Sequence record: OR544955
Length of the DNA stretch: 64,000 nucleotides
Strand: one strand, 5' to 3'
Source of the DNA: Escherichia phage vB_EcoP_EP32B
The translations under genes and the position numbers were made by a program. The notes under the pieces were generated by a model. The model saw nothing but the letters and a program-made list of their open reading frames with translations. It was not told the origin of the DNA and made no database searches. Shown in pieces: positions 2,371 to 56,322 of this stretch (the first letter of the stretch is position 1; each line of letters begins with the position of its first letter).

Positions 2371-3885
2371 TTATAAATTAATTGTTTTCATTACATAGTT
2401 AAATTTCTCATCAGCGTAACGTTGGATACGATCAATACCGTGTTTTAACAAGTAATTAAGATGAGTATACTTCTTTTTAGTATTTAATGATTTAGGTTTT
2501 ACACCTGCGTCATCTATGAGATCCCAAACTGTAGCAACAGCTTTAGAACCGTGCTTACGAAGCACACGACCTACGGTTTGAAGTACGATAATTTTTGATT
2601 TAACACCATGGGCAAAAATAACATGATGAAGATTCTTGACTGAAATACCAGTAGAGAATACTCCATATGATGCGACAATAATAATGCCTTTACCATTTTC
2701 TGCCATGACTTTAAGCGCATTACGTGTTTCAGTATCAACTTCACCTGATACGTAATAAACTTTTTCGTATCCAAGCTCTTTAATAGCTTCAAATATTTCT
2801 TTACCGTGTGTAACGTGTTTAAACATTACAAAGGCGTTCTCGTCTTTCTTAGCCAATTTGACTGAAAGTTGAGCAATCCACTTTGTACGACGTTTTAGTC
2901 CGGTAATAATTTTAACTTCTTCTTGGTATGTTTTACCTTTTAATTTAACGGCGAATTCGTCCGGATAACGAAGGAAAATACTATTAATCTTAAGCTCAGT
3001 TACCTGTCCGTCTTCCATTAATTTAGACGTGCTAACAGGACGGAAGATTTCGCCGAACATACCTACGTACTGCATTACATTGGCTTTTCCGTCTCTTAAT
3101 GAGCCGGATAAACCGAATTTAAACATGCAATTATTTAATCCTGAGATGATTGAAGAAATACTTTTGCCTGTTGCTAAGTGGCATTCATCATTCATCATCA
3201 TACCGAACTGAGAGAACCATTCTTTAGGCTGCTTAACTACCGTTTGCCATGTGCCAACAATAATTGGAGCGTCGTTTTTAGATTTGTCCGCTTTATCAGC
3301 ACCACCACCAATTTTCTTAATCATCGAATGACTAAACAAACGATAATCAACAAAATCGTTAGCCATCTGGGTTGTCAATGCTGTTGTAGGTACGATAATG
3401 AGAATTTTACCTTCATAGTTCTCTAGATAATACCGAGCTAAAAGTGCTTGGATTAGTGATTTACCTGCTGATGTCGGAAGGTTTAAAATTCGACGACGAT
3501 TAACTAGTCCTTCATATACTGCATCTTTTTGATACCAATGTGGTTCGATTTTGGCGTTGCCTGAATAAATTTCTTGTTTAGAAAGCCATGAGTCAAAATC
3601 TTCCCTGGTAAGGTCTTCAGTCTCAAAGATTTTAGGGTCAATCCATACAGAATAACTCATATTGTTACAGAACTTTTTTATTTGTCCTACAAGTCCATAT
3701 GGTAACAAACGATTGTAATCTAAAAGACGAATTCTACCATCCCATTGCCCATAGCGATATTTTGGGTTAAATTTATACCCGTCAGCTTCAAAGCTAAAAA
3801 AGTCACGAAGTTCGTAAAACGTACTTTCGTCGCATTCAATGCGAACGTGACTAAAATCATAAAAATGTACTTTAATGTCAGTCAT
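2371..3885 (-). CDS. uvsW: UvsW SF2 DNA/RNA helicase
   Basis: 504 aa; Walker A LPTSAGKS and DECH box visible. Confidence 0.9.
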   Translation of the reverse strand: MTDIKVHFYDFSHVRIECDESTFYELRDFFSFEADGYKFNPKYRYGQWDGRIRLLDYNRLLPYGLVGQIKKFCNNMSYSVWIDPKIFETEDLTREDFDSWLSKQEIYSGNAKIEPHWYQKDAVYEGLVNRRRILNLPTSAGKSLIQALLARYYLENYEGKILIIVPTTALTTQMANDFVDYRLFSHSMIKKIGGGADKADKSKNDAPIIVGTWQTVVKQPKEWFSQFGMMMNDECHLATGKSISSIISGLNNCMFKFGLSGSLRDGKANVMQYVGMFGEIFRPVSTSKLMEDGQVTELKINSIFLRYPDEFAVKLKGKTYQEEVKIITGLKRRTKWIAQLSVKLAKKDENAFVMFKHVTHGKEIFEAIKELGYEKVYYVSGEVDTETRNALKVMAENGKGIIIVASYGVFSTGISVKNLHHVIFAHGVKSKIIVLQTVGRVLRKHGSKAVATVWDLIDDAGVKPKSLNTKKKYTHLNYLLKHGIDRIQRYADEKFNYVMKTINL

Positions 3886-6688: not shown

Positions 6689-7687
6689 ATGTTTAAGAAA
6701 TACAGCAGTCTTGAAAACCACTACAACTCTAAGTTTATTGAAAAACTCTACACTAATGGTTTGACTACTGGTGTTTGGGTAGCACGTGAGAAAATCCATG
6801 GGACCAACTTTAGTTTAATTATTGAACGTGACAACGTCACATGCGCCAAGCGCACAGGCCCTATTCTTCCGGCAGAAGATTTTTATGGTTATGAAATCGT
6901 ACTCAAGAAGTATGATAAAGCTATTAAAGCCGTTCAGGAATTCATGTACACAGCTCGAGCTGTATCATATCAAGTATTTGGTGAATTCGCTGGTGGTGGA
7001 ATCCAGAAAGGTGTTGACTACGGTGAAAAAGATTTTTATGTGTTCGATATCCTTATCAATACAGAAAGTTGTGATAATACGTATTTGACCGATTATGAAA
7101 TGCAAGATTTCTGTAATGAATTCGGTTTTAAAATGGCACCAATGCTTGGTCGTGGCACATTTGATGCTCTTATCATGATTCCAAACGACCTTGATTCTGT
7201 CTTAGCCGCTTATAATGCTACAGCGTCAGAAGACCTTGTCGAAGCAAATAATTGCGTATTTGATGCTAATGTTATTGGTAATAATACTGCGGAAGGTTAT
7301 GTTCTGAAGCCCTGTTTCCCTAAATGGTTGCCAAACGGTACTCGTGTAGCTATTAAGTGCAAGAACTCTAAATTCAGTGAAAAGAAAAAGTCTGATAAGC
7401 CTATTAAAACTCAGGTTCCATTAACCGAAATTGACAAAAACTTACTTGATGTTCTAGCTTGTTATGTTACATTAAATCGTGTTAATAATGTGATTTCTAA
7501 GATTGGGACTGTAACGCCAAAAGATTTTGGCAAAGTGATGGGATTGACTGTTCAAGATATTCTGGAAGAAACTTCTCGTGAAGGTATTGTATTAACATCA
7601 TCTGATAATCCGAATCTTGTTAAGAAAGAATTAGTCCGAATGGTGCAAGATGTTCTGCGTCCTGCATGGATTGAATTAGTATCATAA
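6689..7687 (+). CDS. rnlB: RNA ligase 2 (RnlB)
   Basis: 332 aa; KIHGTNFS ligase motif I near N-terminus; matches recalled T4 Rnl2. Confidence 0.85.
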
Positions 7688-7694
7688 CGAAAAA

Positions 7695-7717
7695 GGGACC
7701 GTAAGGTCCCTTTTTTT
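7695..7717. terminator. Bidirectional rho-independent terminator between rnlB and gene 24
   Basis: GGGACC-GTAA-GGTCCC hairpin with T-runs on both strands. Confidence 0.65.
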
Positions 7718-8999
7718 ATTCATCAATGATAATTTTTGGTAGCTTAACACCGAGTAAAACAGACAAGTCTGAACGTCCTGCCATTTTATCCATGTCCCCG
7801 CCATCAATTATTCTCGCTTCTTTTTCATCTTTTGCTACTGTGTAAGGATTTGCTGATAAGGCATATCTAACCAATAATCCGATAGACGGTTGCAAGCTTT
7901 CTGGATCAACTACAACTTTAAATGCACCGACATGTTCCGGGTCATCTAAATCCACTCCTTCAGTATATGGAGCATAAAAGATGGACCCTACAATTTCTTT
8001 TTCGCCGAGATTTTCTACAACACCCACAATAACATAATCTAACGGGCTGTTGGTATCGCAGTAAAGAGGTAATCCATTTGCCAAGAATCCATAAGCATTT
8101 TGTGAAAGATACTTGTCATCTTCTGGCTTATGTTTTAACCAACCGGAAGCAGCAAGAATAGCAGCTGCACGAGCTGAGGCTACACAAAACGTTGCAGTAT
8201 AAGTTGTCTCTTTTTGGATGTGTGATACCATTTCACACACCATTCGATATAACGAACGACCTGCTTCTGGAGCGGATGCATAGCTCAAGTCAATAAATCC
8301 GGTGTCAGTAATTCCAGTAACTTTATAACGTTTCGATACAGTAATTAAAGACTGAAGAATATCTTTATTAATTTCATCTGCCATTTCAGTAGCAAGCAAA
8401 TCTTCTAAGAAGTTAGGGGCATCAAATCCATTCGCTTCCAAATCTTGCGCTAATTCAACCGTGAGGCCAGTTTTAAGTTTACGAGATTTGACTGAAGTTT
8501 GCCATTTATTAATCTGGAATCTTGCATCAGAAATTTCGCTATCAGAGCTTTCAAATTTGCTTGTTACCGCTGCATCTGAAAATAACCGTACCTTTAAATG
8601 AACGACCGCAATCTGAAGAGCTAATTCTAGATCACTTTCTTGAATATCTGCAAATGGTGTATCTTCTAACACTTTATAGACGATATTATTATATTTGAAA
8701 AAATCGCCTTTATTTAGTGTGACTTTTGATTCTTCTGTGAGTTCGGTAATTTTTTCTCGGTCTACATATCCAACTTCACCAGCATAAGTAGCACCGGTTT
8801 TAAATGTGAATTCGTTATCTGGGTTAAGATATTTGATACCATAAAAAGCAGCAACAGGTTGATTAGTTCTTTGTGTTGCTACAATGTCAGAATATATTAA
8901 TTTAGTCGTAGCGCGAGTCAAAGCAACGAGATTTGGGCGACCAATTGAGTTGCTAGTAGACGTTGTAGATTCACGCAATAATTTTTGGATTTTACTCAT
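7716..8999 (-). CDS. 24: Head vertex protein gp24
   Basis: 427 aa, same as T4 gp24; gp23-like fold residues. Confidence 0.9.
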   Translation of the reverse strand: MSKIQKLLRESTTSTSNSIGRPNLVALTRATTKLIYSDIVATQRTNQPVAAFYGIKYLNPDNEFTFKTGATYAGEVGYVDREKITELTEESKVTLNKGDFFKYNNIVYKVLEDTPFADIQESDLELALQIAVVHLKVRLFSDAAVTSKFESSDSEISDARFQINKWQTSVKSRKLKTGLTVELAQDLEANGFDAPNFLEDLLATEMADEINKDILQSLITVSKRYKVTGITDTGFIDLSYASAPEAGRSLYRMVCEMVSHIQKETTYTATFCVASARAAAILAASGWLKHKPEDDKYLSQNAYGFLANGLPLYCDTNSPLDYVIVGVVENLGEKEIVGSIFYAPYTEGVDLDDPEHVGAFKVVVDPESLQPSIGLLVRYALSANPYTVAKDEKEARIIDGGDMDKMAGRSDLSVLLGVKLPKIIIDE

Positions 9000-9026: not shown

Positions 9027-9034
9027 TATTTATA
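9027..9034 (-). promoter_or_regulatory. T4-type late promoter for gene 24
   Basis: TATTTATA on + (TATAAATA on -) upstream of gp24 start 8999. Confidence 0.5.
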
Positions 9035-9040
9035 AAGATT

Positions 9041-9070
9041 GTTTACAACGTATTTGGTATGTGATACTAT
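9041..9070 (+). promoter_or_regulatory. T4 early-type promoter (GTTTAC -35, TGATACTAT extended -10)
   Basis: Same motif family as the early promoters in the 41-60 kb region. Confidence 0.55.
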
Positions 9071-9100
9071 AGACTTATCAACTACAGAGGAGTAAACAAA

Positions 9101-9370
9101 ATGACTAAAGCACGTTTCTTACGAGATACTTTAAAAGTTCTGGAAGCTGAAGCAGTTAAGTTAGTAGAAAAATATGGTGCAAAAGTTAATGGTAATGCCT
9201 TCAACAAAGTATGGATGAAAGTTGATTCTGAAGCTCGAGCTAAAGGTTATTGGGCCACTGATAAACTTGCATCATTCAAAAACAAAGACGGTTCTCCAGC
9301 ATATATCCAAGAAGGTATGCCTAATTGGCAAAATATTTTGAAAACTTACATCAAAATTGCACAGAAATAA
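9101..9370 (+). CDS. Hypothetical 89 aa protein, antisense to the late cluster between genes 23 and 24
   Basis: ORF with GAGGAG SD and own early-type promoter. Confidence 0.5.
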   Translation: MTKARFLRDTLKVLEAEAVKLVEKYGAKVNGNAFNKVWMKVDSEARAKGYWATDKLASFKNKDGSPAYIQEGMPNWQNILKTYIKIAQK

Positions 9371-40614: not shown

Positions 40615-41300
<686 letters not shown>

Positions 41301-41377: not shown

Positions 41378-41440
41378 ATGAAAACATATCAAGAATTTAT
41401 ATATGTTATAGTAGTCCTATCAAAACAAGAGGATAATAAA
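41378..41440 (+). other. Remnant internal-protein (IPI-type) start codon region fused to a partial PeSL
   Basis: ATG with SD encoding MKTYQEFI (capsid-targeting-sequence-like), running directly into TATGTTATAGTAGTCCTATCAAAACAAGAGGA and a second start at 41441. Confidence 0.45.
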
Positions 41441-41626
41441 ATGAAACGCGCTGAACTGATTCGTAATGTTGCTGTAGTAATTGCTTCAATGGCTTTTAGT
41501 TTTTCGATGTTTGTAGGATTCATTTGTGGACTACTGACAACAACTGAAAACTCTATCTCATTGGTAGTAGCATTTCTAATCGGCTTAATCGCTATCGTTA
41601 TGGATAAAATTGCAAAAGGTGAGTAA
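41441..41626 (+). CDS. Small hydrophobic membrane protein (61 aa; 82 aa if started at 41378)
   Basis: ATG 41441 with GAGGA SD; predicted TM helices. Confidence 0.5.
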   Translation: MKRAELIRNVAVVIASMAFSFSMFVGFICGLLTTTENSISLVVAFLIGLIAIVMDKIAKGE

Positions 41627-41989: not shown

Positions 41990-42276
41990 TTCTTTATGCT
42001 AAGGTAAAATCCGTTGAGAATGGATATGAAAGCGACCGGGGTGCAGCTAAAGCACTAGTCGATGACTACGGTATTCTGACTAACTTTGAGGTTGAAAAGG
42101 TTTATATCGACCGTTCATCTTCACAGGTTAAATTACTCTGTGAAGACAATAAATTTAACACAGTTAATTTTGATTTCTTTATTGAAACTGAATCAGGTCC
42201 TCTTGAATATGATATTTTCAAGAATCCTTTGAAATTACGTTGCATTGAATATAATTACATTAATATGGTACGGTGA
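41986..42276 (+). CDS. Hypothetical protein
   Basis: 96 aa ORF overlapping previous stop. Confidence 0.5.
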   Translation: MILYAKVKSVENGYESDRGAAKALVDDYGILTNFEVEKVYIDRSSSQVKLLCEDNKFNTVNFDFFIETESGPLEYDIFKNPLKLRCIEYNYINMVR

Positions 42277-42280
42277 GTAA

Positions 42281-42772
42281 ATGAATATTTGTTTAGGCAG
42301 TACAATTCCTAAGGGTTACGTAATTGATGTCACTACTTGGGAAAATGACGGTGACAACTATAAAACCAAAACATTATTTGGTGTAGAAGAGCATGAGCTC
42401 CAACAGTTTAAATATCTCTTGAAGAAATTTAAGAGTCGTCATTCTAGTACTAAAGCTGAACGTTACTGTGGTAATACACTATTCAGTGATTGCTCGCTTT
42501 TAATCTATGAATACTTGGTTGAAGGACTGTTCTCAGACCAGCTTTATCCAGAATTCATTAAAAAGGTCTTTGATATTGAAGTCGACCTTGGTAATAAATC
42601 TGAAGAAGACGAATCACGTGTATTTGACCTGTTCCAAGGTCTCATTGATATTCTTGGCCATGCTTCTGAATATTATGACTATGATTTCTTGCGTGTAGTT
42701 GAACGTGTTGAATTCGCTTATATTGAAGAAGAAATTGTTTTGCCGACTGTTAAAATGATTGATTTGCTTTAA
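42281..42772 (+). CDS. Hypothetical acidic protein
   Basis: 163 aa ORF. Confidence 0.5.
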   Translation: MNICLGSTIPKGYVIDVTTWENDGDNYKTKTLFGVEEHELQQFKYLLKKFKSRHSSTKAERYCGNTLFSDCSLLIYEYLVEGLFSDQLYPEFIKKVFDIEVDLGNKSEEDESRVFDLFQGLIDILGHASEYYDYDFLRVVERVEFAYIEEEIVLPTVKMIDLL

Positions 42773-42851
42773 GAATTATGTGTTATTATTAATTCATACC
42801 CTCTATTACCAAAGGTGCTCTAAAGTGCCTTTCATAATAGAAAGTTATTTA

Positions 42852-42990
42852 GGCCCTGTAGCTCAATGGTGCAGTAGCTGCTCTGGAAAACCTGTTCCAA
42901 ATTGCAACAGAAGAACGCGAAGAAGTTACATTATGGATTGAAGATAACGCAGGTCTGAATCTCCAGGACGCGATCTCATTATCCCACAAT
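42852..42990 (+). other. Non-coding region with tRNA-like fragments (probable decayed tRNA cluster)
   Basis: GGCCCTGTAGCTCAATGGT resembles acceptor/D-arm; ...GATCTCATTATCC resembles a tRNA 3' region; no complete cloverleaf could be folded by eye. Confidence 0.3.
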
Positions 42991-43039
42991 AGTATCACTG
43001 TTCAAGGCTGGGTATCATCTAGTTATTCTTGCTAAAACA

Positions 43040-43078
43040 GTTTACAACAAGATAGGGCTATGTTATAGTAGTCCTATC
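43040..43078 (+). promoter_or_regulatory. PeSL-like early promoter with stem-loop
   Basis: GTTTAC 43040-43045; TGTTATAGT 43061-43069; inverted repeat GATAGGGCT/AGTCCTATC. Confidence 0.55.
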
Positions 43079-43097
43079 AAAACAAATGGAGTCCACA

Positions 43098-43337
43098 ATG
43101 ATTTATTACGAAAGTATCGGAACCAAAGTGGTTGGTAAAACCATTACTCGTGAAAAGTTTGCAAAGATATTCGATATGCGTTATAAAAAATCTGAACACA
43201 AAGGCATCCGATTCGAAGATGCGCACTGTACAATTTGCCCTTATAATGAAGACATAAACGGTACAATCGTTCCATTGGTAGAGGCTTCACATGATGACCT
43301 CTGGGATGAATATAATATCGCATGTCGTGAAATTTAA
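43098..43337 (+). CDS. Hypothetical protein
   Basis: 79 aa from ATG 43098 after GGAG. Confidence 0.5.
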   Translation: MIYYESIGTKVVGKTITREKFAKIFDMRYKKSEHKGIRFEDAHCTICPYNEDINGTIVPLVEASHDDLWDEYNIACREI

Positions 43338-43365
43338 GTTAATGAATTAATCCGAGGAAAATATT

Positions 43366-44322
43366 ATGATGTTAGTTATTGGTTCTCGTGCACTTCACTA
43401 TCACGGTCTTATTGATTCTAGCGCTATTAAAAATAGTGATTGGGACTTTATTGCGGACCAAGGTTCTTGGAATGCATTCAAAAATCAAATGATGGGTGTA
43501 TATGTTCACCAAGATAACCCTGATGTCCAAGTTTTCAAATGCTTCCATAATGGACGCGAAACTCATTTTGAAGCATATATTGTTCCGGCAATCACTAGTG
43601 TCCGTGAATTAGTCGGTGAACTCACTCCTGAAGATTTCACGTCTTCTTATGACCTTTTAAAATACGCCAAGAAAAATTTGACTAAAGACCGTTTGAACGG
43701 GTTTTACTGGGCAACTCCTGAGATATGTCTTGCAATTAAGATGTCTCATCGTTTCAAGAAAAATAATCCATTCTTTTTAAAGACTATGAACCATATTCAG
43801 TATCTTCGTGGTAAAGGTGTTAAACTGAACGATGAACTTACTGAAATTATGCTGAAACGCCAGAAAGAAACCTTGAACTATGCTCACCCTGTTCTTGACA
43901 CTTCTAAAAGTGCGTTCTTTAAAGATGACATCTATACATATGACCATGATACTATTCACGAAGCTATTGCACTAACAGACCGTCCGGCTTATACATTTTA
44001 CATGAAAGATGGTTCTGAAGTCATGACCTCACGCGAGAAGTTTGAATCACTTCCGGAAATGGTCAAATTGGCCGGTGTATATGAAGAAACATGTGTACTA
44101 GCGTTAGAACGTTCTCAGATTCCTAATGGCTTTGAAATCCATCCTCGTGATAGTTTTATGATGGCATTAGAAAAGGTCTGTACTTCAATCACATCAGGCT
44201 GGTTCCGTGAGTTCGCTTGGGAAAATTATAGCAAAGTAGTAAGTATGTACCAAAGCTTAGGACACGACGATTACGTCAAGCGTTTCAAACAAAACTTTCA
44301 TATGGTAAAACCTTTCAAATAA
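43366..44322 (+). CDS. Hypothetical 318 aa protein with possible nucleotidyltransferase-like GS...DxD motif
   Basis: GAGGA SD; N-terminal VIGSRALHYHGL...SDWDFIAD. Confidence 0.5.
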   Translation: MMLVIGSRALHYHGLIDSSAIKNSDWDFIADQGSWNAFKNQMMGVYVHQDNPDVQVFKCFHNGRETHFEAYIVPAITSVRELVGELTPEDFTSSYDLLKYAKKNLTKDRLNGFYWATPEICLAIKMSHRFKKNNPFFLKTMNHIQYLRGKGVKLNDELTEIMLKRQKETLNYAHPVLDTSKSAFFKDDIYTYDHDTIHEAIALTDRPAYTFYMKDGSEVMTSREKFESLPEMVKLAGVYEETCVLALERSQIPNGFEIHPRDSFMMALEKVCTSITSGWFREFAWENYSKVVSMYQSLGHDDYVKRFKQNFHMVKPFK

Positions 44323-44334
44323 TTTCACAAAACA

Positions 44335-44369
44335 GTTTACAAGGTCTGTAGTTGTTGATACTATAGACC
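44335..44369 (+). promoter_or_regulatory. PeSL-like early promoter with stem-loop
   Basis: GTTTAC 44335-44340; TGATACTAT; inverted repeat GGTCTGTAG/CTATAGACC. Confidence 0.55.
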
Positions 44370-44402
44370 TATCAAAACAAATGAGTGAATGGAGATATCA
44401 AA

Positions 44403-44603
44403 ATGACTACTTTGAATAAACGTTTCGGTAAAGCTAAACCTGGTTGTGCAGCAGAACGTCGTTATGTTTTCGCTCAGTTAGAAGATGTAGAGTATCAGAT
44501 TAATCAAGTTCACATTACTGGTATCGAGCCTATGTGTGGCCTTGAAGCTCTTCGTGAAGTTCGTGATGGGTATCGTCGTGACATCGAAGAAATGTCAAAA
44601 TAA
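44403..44603 (+). CDS. Hypothetical protein
   Basis: 66 aa from ATG 44403 after GGAG. Confidence 0.5.
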   Translation: MTTLNKRFGKAKPGCAAERRYVFAQLEDVEYQINQVHITGIEPMCGLEALREVRDGYRRDIEEMSK

Positions 44604-47504: not shown

Positions 47505-47505
47505 T

Positions 47506-47559
47506 GTTTACTTCCTCCAAGGACTTTGATACTATACATTCATCAACTACTTGGAGGAA
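47506..47559 (+). promoter_or_regulatory. PeSL-like early promoter with stem-loop
   Basis: GTTTAC 47506-47511; TTGATACTAT; 9 bp inverted repeat TTCCTCCAA/TTGGAGGAA. Confidence 0.55.
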
Positions 47560-47562
47560 ATT

Positions 47563-47976
47563 ATGACTCGTATCAATTTAACACTTGTTTCTGAACTGAC
47601 TGACCAACATCTTATGGCTGAGTATCGTGAATTACCACGCGTATTTGGTGCAGTCCGTAAACATGTTCAAAACGGTAAACGTGTAAAGGATTTTAAAATC
47701 TCTCCAACATTTATCTTAGGCACAGGTCACGTAACATTCTTTTACGACAAACTTGAATTTTTACGTTTACGACAAATCGAGCTAATCGCCGAATGCTTGA
47801 AACGTGGTTTCAAAATCAAGGACACGACTGTCCAGGATATTTCCGACATCCCTGCAGAATTTCGTAATAATTATGTCCCATCCGAAGCGTCCATTGCGAT
47901 AAGTCAAGCACGCTTAGATGAAAAAATTGCTCAACGTCCGACTTGGTACAAATACTATGGTAAATCAATTTACTAA
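47563..47976 (+). CDS. denV: Endonuclease V (pyrimidine dimer DNA glycosylase DenV)
   Basis: 137 aa; [12 protein letters not shown]...TWYKYYGK recalled as T4 endo V. Confidence 0.9.
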
Positions 47977-49502: not shown

Positions 49503-49890
49503 AGACATCAAAGGCTATAAGCCGCATACCGACGATAAAATCGGTAAAGTGAACGCTATTAAAGATGCAGAAGTTCGAGGAAAAATACTAATGGCTCAAA
49601 TCCTATCAGGCTTTGGAACTCATTATGAAGCATCTAGACGCATAACTGAAAGCAATCCTTTTGGCCTTGTTCCGAAGCACAAGAAAATTCAAAGCCTTGA
49701 TGACTTTGAGAACCGCCTATGGGCCCTCTTTAATGAGTACAAGGCATATCTGAAAGAAGACGCTGACGATTGTCTTGAAGAAGATGAGATTGCGTATTAC
49801 GAACAACGCCTTGAACAGCTCAAGAACTTCCATCAGGTTCGTGACGAAGTATCTAAAGCAGTTAAAAAGTTAATTCCTTTCAAAGAGTAG
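49492..49890 (+). CDS. Hypothetical protein
   Basis: 132 aa from ATG 49492 overlapping upstream stop. Confidence 0.45.
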
Positions 49891-49940
49891 TTTACTTCTC
49901 CTCTAGTTGTGTTACTATAGACATGTCAACTAGAGGAGAA
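49890..49940 (+). promoter_or_regulatory. PeSL-like early promoter with 14 bp perfect stem
   Basis: GTTTAC 49890-49895; TGTTACTAT in loop; inverted repeat TTCTCCTCTAGTTG (49896-49909) / CAACTAGAGGAGAA (49927-49940), which includes the regB SD. Confidence 0.6.
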
Positions 49941-49946
49941 ATCAAA

Positions 49947-50405
49947 ATGACTATCAATTCAGACGTTTTTATCCGCCGTAATAAACTCCGTCGAATCTTT
50001 GAAACGGAGTTCCGCAAAATAAATGCCGGTATAAAAGATGCTGCAAAGTCTCTTGGACTACCAGGCTTTCATATCAAGTATTCTCAACATCTCTTAGATC
50101 GTGCCATCCAGAGAGAAATAGATGAGAATTACGTTTTTGAATTATTTCATAAAGTAAAAAATCATGTTAAAGAAGTTGCAGAATTTTTATCAATGCCGGC
50201 ACGTCCAGATGTTGATGAAGATTTTGTCGAAGGTGTCGAGTATCGTCCAGGCCGTTTAGAAATAACTGATGGAAATCTTTGGTTAGGACTTACAGTCTGT
50301 CGCGAAAATCCAGCATTCAAAATGAAGACTCTTCAATGCAGAATGGCTATTATTAACAGTAAACGACTACCAGGAAAAGCTTCTAAAGCAGTGATTAAAA
50401 TCTAG
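49947..50405 (+). CDS. regB: RegB endoribonuclease
   Basis: 152 aa; MTINSDVFIRRNKLRR...LQCRMAIINSKRLPGKASKAVIKI recalled as T4 RegB. Confidence 0.85.
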   Translation: MTINSDVFIRRNKLRRIFETEFRKINAGIKDAAKSLGLPGFHIKYSQHLLDRAIQREIDENYVFELFHKVKNHVKEVAEFLSMPARPDVDEDFVEGVEYRPGRLEITDGNLWLGLTVCRENPAFKMKTLQCRMAIINSKRLPGKASKAVIKI

Positions 50406-53051: not shown

Positions 53052-53058
53052 TTTACTA

Positions 53059-53085
53059 GCCCCTTCCTTACGGTTGGGGCTTTTT
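53059..53085 (+). terminator. Rho-independent terminator after rI
   Basis: GCCCC...GGGGC hairpin plus T5. Confidence 0.6.
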
Positions 53086-53096
53086 GGCATCTATCA

Positions 53097-53339: not shown

Positions 53340-53546
53340 ATGCTTTACGATTATACTGGAAAATCTGAAGACGGTGTACTTGAACTTTTACCTGAAAGCG
53401 CTGAAGACGATGATATGGTGGTGATGTTTTGTAAAAATGGCCCTGGGGATAAGGGATGGATTTATCTTCGCCAAGAAAATGACTTAATTGTTTTGGACCC
53501 TAAACAAGTTGAAGAACTTTATCAACATTTAAAACACAATCGGTAG
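53340..53546 (+). CDS. Hypothetical acidic protein (68 aa)
   Basis: ATG 53340. Confidence 0.45.
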   Translation: MLYDYTGKSEDGVLELLPESAEDDDMVVMFCKNGPGDKGWIYLRQENDLIVLDPKQVEELYQHLKHNR

Positions 53547-53586
53547 TTTACGTCTTGGTAGGACTATGATATAGTAATCCTACCAA
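53546..53586 (+). promoter_or_regulatory. PeSL-like early promoter with stem-loop
   Basis: GTTTAC 53546-53551; TATGATATAGT; 9 bp inverted repeat TTGGTAGGA/TCCTACCAA. Confidence 0.55.
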
Positions 53587-53603
53587 AACAAATGGAGAAC
53601 AAA

Positions 53604-53714
53604 ATGAAACTTTTGCTTATCGCTTATGTTGTAGTACAATACAATTATCCGATGTTTACTTATAACATGGTAAACGGCATAGTGAATCTTATTGAAACGA
53701 GTATGGTAAAATGA
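53604..53714 (+). CDS. Possible 36 aa hydrophobic micropeptide
   Basis: ATG 53604 after GGAGA SD; MKLLLIAYVVVQYNYPMF... Confidence 0.3.
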   Translation: MKLLLIAYVVVQYNYPMFTYNMVNGIVNLIETSMVK

Positions 53715-56208: not shown

Positions 56209-56228
56209 GGGGACCTTCGGGTCCCTTT
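56209..56228 (+). terminator. Rho-independent terminator
   Basis: GGGGACC-TTCG-GGTCCC followed by TTT. Confidence 0.55.
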
Positions 56229-56255
56229 AGGGGGTCAAAATATTTTTAAAAAGTA

Positions 56256-56290
56256 GTGTACATGCTTTTAGGATATGTTATTATAGACCT
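56256..56290 (+). promoter_or_regulatory. PeSL-like early promoter
   Basis: GTGTAC -35 variant; TATGTTATTATAGACCTATCG. Confidence 0.5.
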
Positions 56291-56322
56291 ATCGAAACGA
56301 AATGAGTAAATTGGAGAATAAA

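Follow-up and report, generated by a model that had tools for sequence, protein, structure and literature searches.

In phage T4, the genes around the tRNA cluster are ordered 57B, ipI, trna.4, trna.3, trna.2, the tRNA cluster with segB and rnaC/rnaD, e.8 to e.2, nudE, and e. In RB69 and APCEc01, the left part of the locus is arranged as 57B, ipI, trna.4/.3/.2, an extra gene (RB69ORF151c), tRNA(cat), and tRNA-Arg(tct); the tRNA pair is followed on its 3′ side by about eleven small ORFs, including homologues of e.8/e.6/e.5/e.4/e.3, and the right part is made up of a 90-aa ORF, a 65-aa ORF (RB69ORF136c/APCEc01_167), a 79-aa ORF, and a 318-aa ORF. With ARAGORN, 8 tRNAs were predicted at the T4 locus and 2 each at those of APCEc01, RB69, and AV115. 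RB69 possesses two tRNAs in total (Table 1 of PMC1524935), both of them located at this locus. The T4-type tRNA(cat) class is a lysidine-type tRNA-Ile that is mis-called Met by predictors (PMC1524935), and the annotations of relatives accordingly name the tRNA-Ile(CAU) gene “tRNA-Met(cat)”. Deletions of 0.7 to 6 kb arise readily in the accessory regions of T4, those of kilobase size giving viable phage, and most of the deletions described use a microhomology of 6–10 bp (PMC9391042).

The sequence analyzed here, a stretch of 64,000 nt from Escherichia phage vB_EcoP_EP32B (record OR544955), is referred to below as the window; its plus strand is the counterpart of the T4 minus strand. From sequence matches at this locus, EP32B was assigned to the genus Mosigvirus, among the RB69-like phages of the T4 type. 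The gene order read from the ORF list was 57B, trna.3, trna.2, a homologue of ORF151c, a gap, the 79-aa gene, and the 318-aa gene. In relatives, the RB69ORF151c-type gene is the final gene ahead of the tRNA genes, and the gap in the window is situated 3′ of trna.4/.3/.2 and 5′ of the e.x genes, which is the T4 tRNA position, as had been proposed in the original prediction. That prediction had described a non-coding gap of 270 bp (nt 42772–43040) holding several fragments of a decayed tRNA cluster. Measured from intact gene to intact gene, the gap extended over nt 42773–43097 (325 bp), and half of it (nt 42871–43035) was former coding sequence. As detailed below and in Table 1, the gap is very probably the scar of one deletion of about 5.1 kb in an RB69-like phage, which would have taken two tRNA genes together with about eleven accessory genes.

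Table 1. Features at and around the tRNA locus of EP32B (positions are those of the window)
Feature	Position (nt)	Strand	Basis or relation
57B	40845–41300		Window ORF list
Upstream neighbour, intact, 163 aa, homologue of RB69ORF151c/APCEc01_155	42281–42772	+	ORF list; synteny with APCEc01, RB69, and SQ17
Predicted MotA-type middle promoter of the former tRNA operon	42757–42797	+	Identical in sequence to RB69 74996–75036
Native spacer from upstream gene to tRNA gene, 79 nt	42773–42851	+	100% identical to APCEc01
tRNA-Ile(CAU) stump, nucleotides 1–19 of 74	42852–42870	+	Identity; ARAGORN and Rfam negative
Deletion junction, T/G	42870–42871		Joins APCEc01 110559 to 115679
3′ remnant of the 65-aa gene APCEc01_167/RB69ORF136c (phrog_4882), codons 12–65 and stop	42871–43035	+	
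Early-type promoter TTTACA-17-TATAGT (43041–43069) with overlapping 9-bp stem	43041–43078	+	Promoter scan; direct reading
Downstream neighbour, intact, 79 aa, homologue of RB69ORF135c/APCEc01_168	43098–43337	+	
318-aa gene	43366–44322		Window ORF list
PeSL-like intergenic repeats, 35–66 nt	9027–9107, 41402–41443, 43035–43100, 44353–44413, 47505–47569, 49878–49953, 53057–53093, 53544–53606, 56228–56293		

The genes bordering the gap were intact. The downstream 79-aa gene had its ATG at nt 43098, preceded by GGAG 6 nt upstream, and the product of the ORF151c homologue was 163 aa in the window versus 171 aa in APCEc01, RB69, and SQ17, with a stretch of divergence or an indel starting about 236 nt upstream of the junction. 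Exact proteins of the ORF151c and trna.2 homologues and the 318-aa downstream protein found no match in a large protein-to-contig index; with these three neighbouring proteins not on record, EP32B is a distinct, unsampled Mosigvirus. Two ORFs listed inside the gap, nt 42759–42941 (plus strand) and nt 42849–42998 (minus strand), were regarded as spurious, being out of frame with and antisense to the gene remnant, respectively.

The first of two fragments pointed out in the original prediction, the acceptor/D-arm-like GGCCCTGTAGCTCAATGGT, occurred once in the window, on the plus strand at nt 42852–42870, the chance expectation being about 0.02 matches with 3 mismatches permitted. Its origin from a tRNA gene was confirmed, since nt 42800–42870 matched the spacer and the first 19 nt of tRNA-Met(cat) at 71 of 71 positions in at least 25 Mosigvirus records (E=2e-28). 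When the tRNA regions of T4 and RB69 were aligned with the window by blastn, the match was confined to nt 42851–42870, in which the 19-mer plus one upstream base was an exact match to T4 tRNA-Ile. The stump was identical over 19/19 nt to both the APCEc01 tRNA(cat) and the T4 tRNA-Ile, two genes that differ from each other at a single position, and differed by one base from the RB69 tRNA; its base 16 (T) and base 19 (T) were shared with the APCEc01/T4-type tRNA only. Retained in it were the 5′ strand of the acceptor, the 5′ strand of the D-stem, and most of the D-loop. It was found in the orthologous position, that is, after the ORF151c homologue, the equivalent of promoter Pm:75036, and the 79-nt spacer. 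Judged by identity beyond chance and by this position, nt 42852–42870 are a truncated pseudogene of T4-type tRNA-Ile(CAU), and a stump of 19 nt is unable to form a tRNA fold.

The sequence following the stump was of a different nature. Over 165/165 nt, it was identical to APCEc01_167, and its translation, AVAALENLFQ...VQGWVSSSYSC followed by the stop, corresponded exactly to residues 12–65 of the intact 65-aa protein. The intact gene matched phrog_4882 (E=7.7e-37), a PHROG in the category of unknown function. The remnant possessed neither an in-frame ATG, GTG, or TTG nor a ribosome-binding site, was missing from the ORF list, and was directly preceded by in-frame TAG stops, one of which lay inside the tRNA stump; lacking a start codon and ribosome-binding site and having in-frame stops upstream, it was classified as a pseudogene. 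The second fragment of the original prediction, GATCTCATTATCC, taken there for the 3′ end of a tRNA, was located at nt 42972–42984 within this remnant, where it encodes D-A-I-S-L-S, and it was unmatched in the T4 and RB69 tRNA regions by blastn. The reading as a tRNA 3′ end was therefore rejected in favour of a protein-coding remnant. In APCEc01 (locus nt 7050–7844), the products of orf165 and orf166 (phrog_899) and of orf167 (phrog_4882) are encoded by consecutive tiny ORFs, all of which end in G(A)W(V/I)(A/S)SS..C and a stop, and look like a paralogous small-protein family.

The two pieces met at one sharp junction. To its left, 134 nt ending at tRNA nucleotide 19 were 100% identical to APCEc01, the first mismatch being 135 nt away, and to its right, 263 nt beginning at codon 12 of ORF167 were likewise 100% identical. 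In APCEc01, the junction points are separated by 5,119 bp (nt 110560–115678). Compared with that phage, the window thus lacked 55 nt of tRNA-Ile, all of tRNA-Arg(UCU), ORFs 156–166 (eleven, including the e.3–e.6 homologues), and the first 11 codons of ORF167. The deleted DNA was not found elsewhere in the 64 kb window, where the only matches were 35–66-nt promoter-cassette repeats. No Pfam domains were found in the lost ORFs, and all of their PHROGs fell into the category of unknown function. Both ends cut functional units, the tRNA at nt 19 of 74 and the ORF at codon 12, which indicates that the state in the window is derived, by deletion. Other Mosigvirus genomes diverge by several percent, and SQ17 has five differences in the 165-nt remnant; against this background, the perfect match of the two flanks to an existing relative points to a single recent event. 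From these features we infer both the direction and the single-step nature of the deletion.

Gradual decay, by which the tRNA genes would have been eroded by mutations and small deletions to unrecognizable fragments, accounts for the failure of cloverleaf prediction and for the shortness of the visible tRNA-like piece; it is nevertheless refuted by the sequence around the junction, where neither the 134 nt on the left nor the 263 nt on the right showed any substitution relative to APCEc01. The rest of the gap was without tRNA resemblance by blastn and consisted of a perfectly kept gene tail. The several decayed fragments originally supposed were thus reduced to one 19-nt stump at a single junction with identical flanks.

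How much was deleted depends on the layout assumed for the ancestor, the loss being 1,482 bp for the AV115 type, 5,119 bp for the APCEc01 type, and 5,513 bp for the RB69 type. Since bases 16 and 19 of the stump match the APCEc01/T4-type tRNA only, about 5.1 kb was taken as the best estimate. The ancestor would then have had the APCEc01 layout, with an ORF151c-like gene, the middle promoter, tRNA-Ile(CAU), tRNA-Arg(UCU), about eleven small ORFs, among them the homologues of T4 e.6, e.5, e.4, and e.3, followed by the 65-aa ORF and the 79-aa ORF. One illegitimate recombination would have joined nucleotide 19 of tRNA-Ile to codon 12 of the 65-aa ORF with excision of about 5.1 kb. The leftovers would be an orphaned promoter with its spacer, a 19-nt stump that can be neither folded nor processed, and a start-less gene tail, all presumably without function of their own and probably transcribed merely as a leader toward the next genes.

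Base-by-base comparison with APCEc01 revealed no microhomology at the join between nt 42870 and 42871. A GCAG shared 2 nt off-register was considered as such and rejected, because the product predicted from it differs from the sequence observed. The absence of microhomology at T/G suggests an illegitimate, end-joining-like recombination and not the microhomology-mediated kind typical of T4. A 26-mer spanning the junction was not found in the collections viral_contigs, metagenome_contigs, and genome_contigs, and none of 50,697 phage records spanned the same junction, which is thus known from a single sequence, the OR544955 window. Both this uniqueness among all collections searched and the lack of microhomology would fit an assembly or cloning artefact, in which the phage has the full locus and the join either is a mis-join or was taken into the consensus from a deletion variant present as a minority. 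This was considered very unlikely: the join is collinear and in the same orientation, with both points in one hyperplastic region, and a 5-kb collinear skip without end repeats is rarely made by assemblers. Moreover, the natural isolate SQ17 carries an analogous deletion, and a second small scar, located 1.4 kb upstream where ipI would be expected, suggests a genome that has truly been trimmed.

A true deletion could also have been initiated by a homing endonuclease, if a T-even phage infecting the same cell had supplied a SegB-like enzyme of the GIY-YIG type that cut the tRNA gene, the ends then being resected and joined illegitimately. By way of the T-psi-C motif that it recognizes in tRNA genes, SegB cleaves many of those carried by phages (PMC2330249), and it drives rearrangements near tRNA genes (PMC13096335). 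The enzyme cleaves close to the 3′ terminus of the tRNA gene, following CCAR and on the 3′ side of GGTTCRANTCC, which is some 50 nt away from the break observed at nucleotide 19, and the T-loop of the tRNA-Ile, AGTTCGAATCT, does not conform to the core motif. At its far end, 5 kb away, the deletion terminates inside a protein gene, and Pfam and PHROG searches revealed neither a homing endonuclease nor a seg gene in the lost ORFs. An origin by SegB cleavage is accordingly extremely unlikely.

MotA boxes have the consensus (a/t)(a/t)(a/t)TGCTT(t/c)A and are located about 12 bp upstream of a -10 sequence TAnnnT. This arrangement was observed at nt 42763–42789, with the MotA box TTTGCTTTA at nt 42763–42771, a 12-nt spacer, and the -10 sequence TATTAT at nt 42784–42789, as expected of a MotA-dependent middle promoter. 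The surrounding nt 42757–42797 were identical to the RB69 sequence published as the predicted promoter Pm:75036, with a score of 18.7 (Additional file 4 of PMC1524935), and motA is present in RB69 (PMC1524935). The predicted middle promoter has thus been kept intact, now without tRNA genes to drive, and would presumably still be active as an orphan. The spacer behind it was predicted by RNA folding to hold a 16-bp interrupted hairpin (nt 42802–42841). Folding of nt 42796–43040 gave no indication of a structured RNA, being no better than that of shuffled sequences (z = -0.74).

On the other side of the gene remnant, the early promoter at nt 43041–43069 showed 10/12 matches and an extended TG in the promoter scan, and a 9-bp stem was formed between nt 43051–43059 and nt 43070–43078. 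This region was identical in SQ17 and APCEc01, the deletion having left it untouched. Cassettes consisting of an early promoter and a stem-loop (PeSL) have been described in T4-type phages (Arbiol 2010; Comeau 2014; PMC2839356, PMC4122927). With an early promoter and a stem-loop in combination, repeated between genes, nt 43041–43078 resemble such a PeSL cassette, which would serve the downstream gene. Similar PeSL-like repeats were present at about nine other sites in the window (Table 1), and owing to such repeats, searches with the gap region matched 4–8 places per relative genome. No PeSL-mediated end points were found for the deletion at the tRNA locus, its ends being in a tRNA gene and an ORF and neither of them in a cassette.

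At the ipI position, 1.4 kb upstream (nt 41378–41440), the second deletion scar was observed. It keeps an early promoter, a ribosome-binding site, and the first eight or so codons, MKTYQEFI, resembling the capsid-targeting N-terminus of T4 internal proteins, and this ipI remnant runs straight into the 3′ half of the promoter/stem-loop cassette that follows, ahead of trna.4, the true start of which is likely the ATG at nt 41441. The scar thus ends in a PeSL-like cassette, unlike the deletion at the tRNA locus. At the matching place, APCEc01 carries an ipI gene of 288 nt. With ipI truncated at its usual place, EP32B appears to be without an IPI-type internal protein there.

ARAGORN detected 0 tRNAs in the whole 64 kb window, and no match to the Rfam tRNA model was obtained for nt 42000–44000 even at E<=10; weak Rfam matches in the same interval, to snoRNA and similar families, were far below the gathering scores and were attributed to chance. 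The original prediction had reported that no cloverleaf could be folded, in agreement with both predictors, and had suggested that the phage has lost its tRNA complement. The latter stands as far as the 64 kb window extends, with the ancestral set being two tRNAs (Ile-CAU and Arg-UCU) and not the eight of T4. Because the tRNA set of RB69 is limited to the two genes at this locus, the phage genome has likely lost its entire complement. In the 78 long ORFs of the window, AUA and AGA were used at 11.2 and 7.0 per 1000 codons, respectively. Both values exceed the E. coli averages. The phage would now be dependent on the rare host tRNA-Ile2 and tRNA-Arg(UCU) for decoding AUA and AGA.

Events of this kind are ordinary phage genome variation, well known in the hyperplastic regions of T4-type phages, and the feature reveals no new mechanism. 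That the deletion is an adaptive allele instead of a neutral trimming appeared unlikely. In one version, it may have allowed the phage to evade a host defence that is triggered by, or directed at, something encoded in the tRNA/e.3–e.8 block; in another, by analogy with experimentally evolved T4, it may compensate in headful packaging for DNA gained elsewhere; and in a weaker variant, the orphaned middle promoter, the stump, and the gene tail may together yield a new non-coding leader or sRNA. Were the adaptive reading true, the tRNA-less and IPI-less EP32B would show a measurably altered host range. In annotations, the gap should be entered as a tRNA-Ile(CAU) fragment and a truncated pseudogene, and the labels decayed cluster and candidate non-coding RNA should be avoided. 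More and more links are being made from phage tRNAs and accessory genes to counter-defence and host range (PMC13096335, PMC9391042), and a natural tRNA-less, IPI-less isolate could therefore be used as a comparison strain.

The RB69-type phages, including RB69, APCEc01, JS09, and others, have in common with EP32B the flanking genes, the predicted middle promoter, the spacer, the tail of the 65-aa ORF, and the 79-aa gene. In the phage collection, about 145 records had an intact right flank and about 110 had the spacer with tRNA-Ile and tRNA-Arg (at least 80% coverage), suggesting that tRNA-less members are a minority. One of these is SQ17 (vB_EcoM_SQ17, MW882907, Mosigvirus), from which both tRNAs and the e.3–e.8 block are likewise gone, ARAGORN finding 0 tRNAs in its 6.7-kb locus. 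The SQ17 deletion, about 4.8 kb, is independent and has other end points, leaving the 90-aa and 65-aa ORFs intact. On the left, it begins 32 nt before the tRNA, at the copy of AAGGTGCT situated in the 5′ arm of the spacer hairpin (nt 42812–42819 of the window), and on the right, it stops at the 3′ end of the ORF165 homologue, with AAGGTGCT forming an 8-bp microhomology (SQ17 locus nt 3113–3120). This independent deletion indicates that the phages can do without the block, which has disappeared on more than one occasion. EP32B would thus be, with SQ17, a second independent natural example showing that Mosigvirus can shed both tRNAs and the e.3–e.8 block in one step, which fits the view of the hyperplastic region as dispensable and rapidly turning over.

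A different tRNA pair is present here in AV115 (locus nt 1482–1636), consisting of another tRNA(CAT) and a tRNA-Asn(GTT), a combination also reported from phages of the T2 type. The AV115 tRNA(CAT) has its spacer and initial 18 nt in common with the APCEc01 tRNA-Ile, after which divergence is complete. The 5′ 18 nt therefore mark a boundary of cassette exchange, only 1–2 nt from the break point in the window.

The T4 cluster, with its 8 tRNAs, segB, rnaC, and rnaD, occupies the syntenic position, and the stump in the window is identical to the 5′ end of T4 tRNA-Ile. In the Mosigvirus records examined, the other six T4 tRNAs, segB, and rnaC/rnaD were never at this locus, so that comparison with the full T4 cluster overstates the loss. 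In 1972, Wilson, Kim, and Abelson reportedly found the T4 tRNA genes to be dispensable on laboratory hosts. Apart from a junction that differs in having no microhomology, the EP32B deletion is comparable to those of T4 deletion mutants, which have likewise sustained kilobase losses in non-essential early regions.
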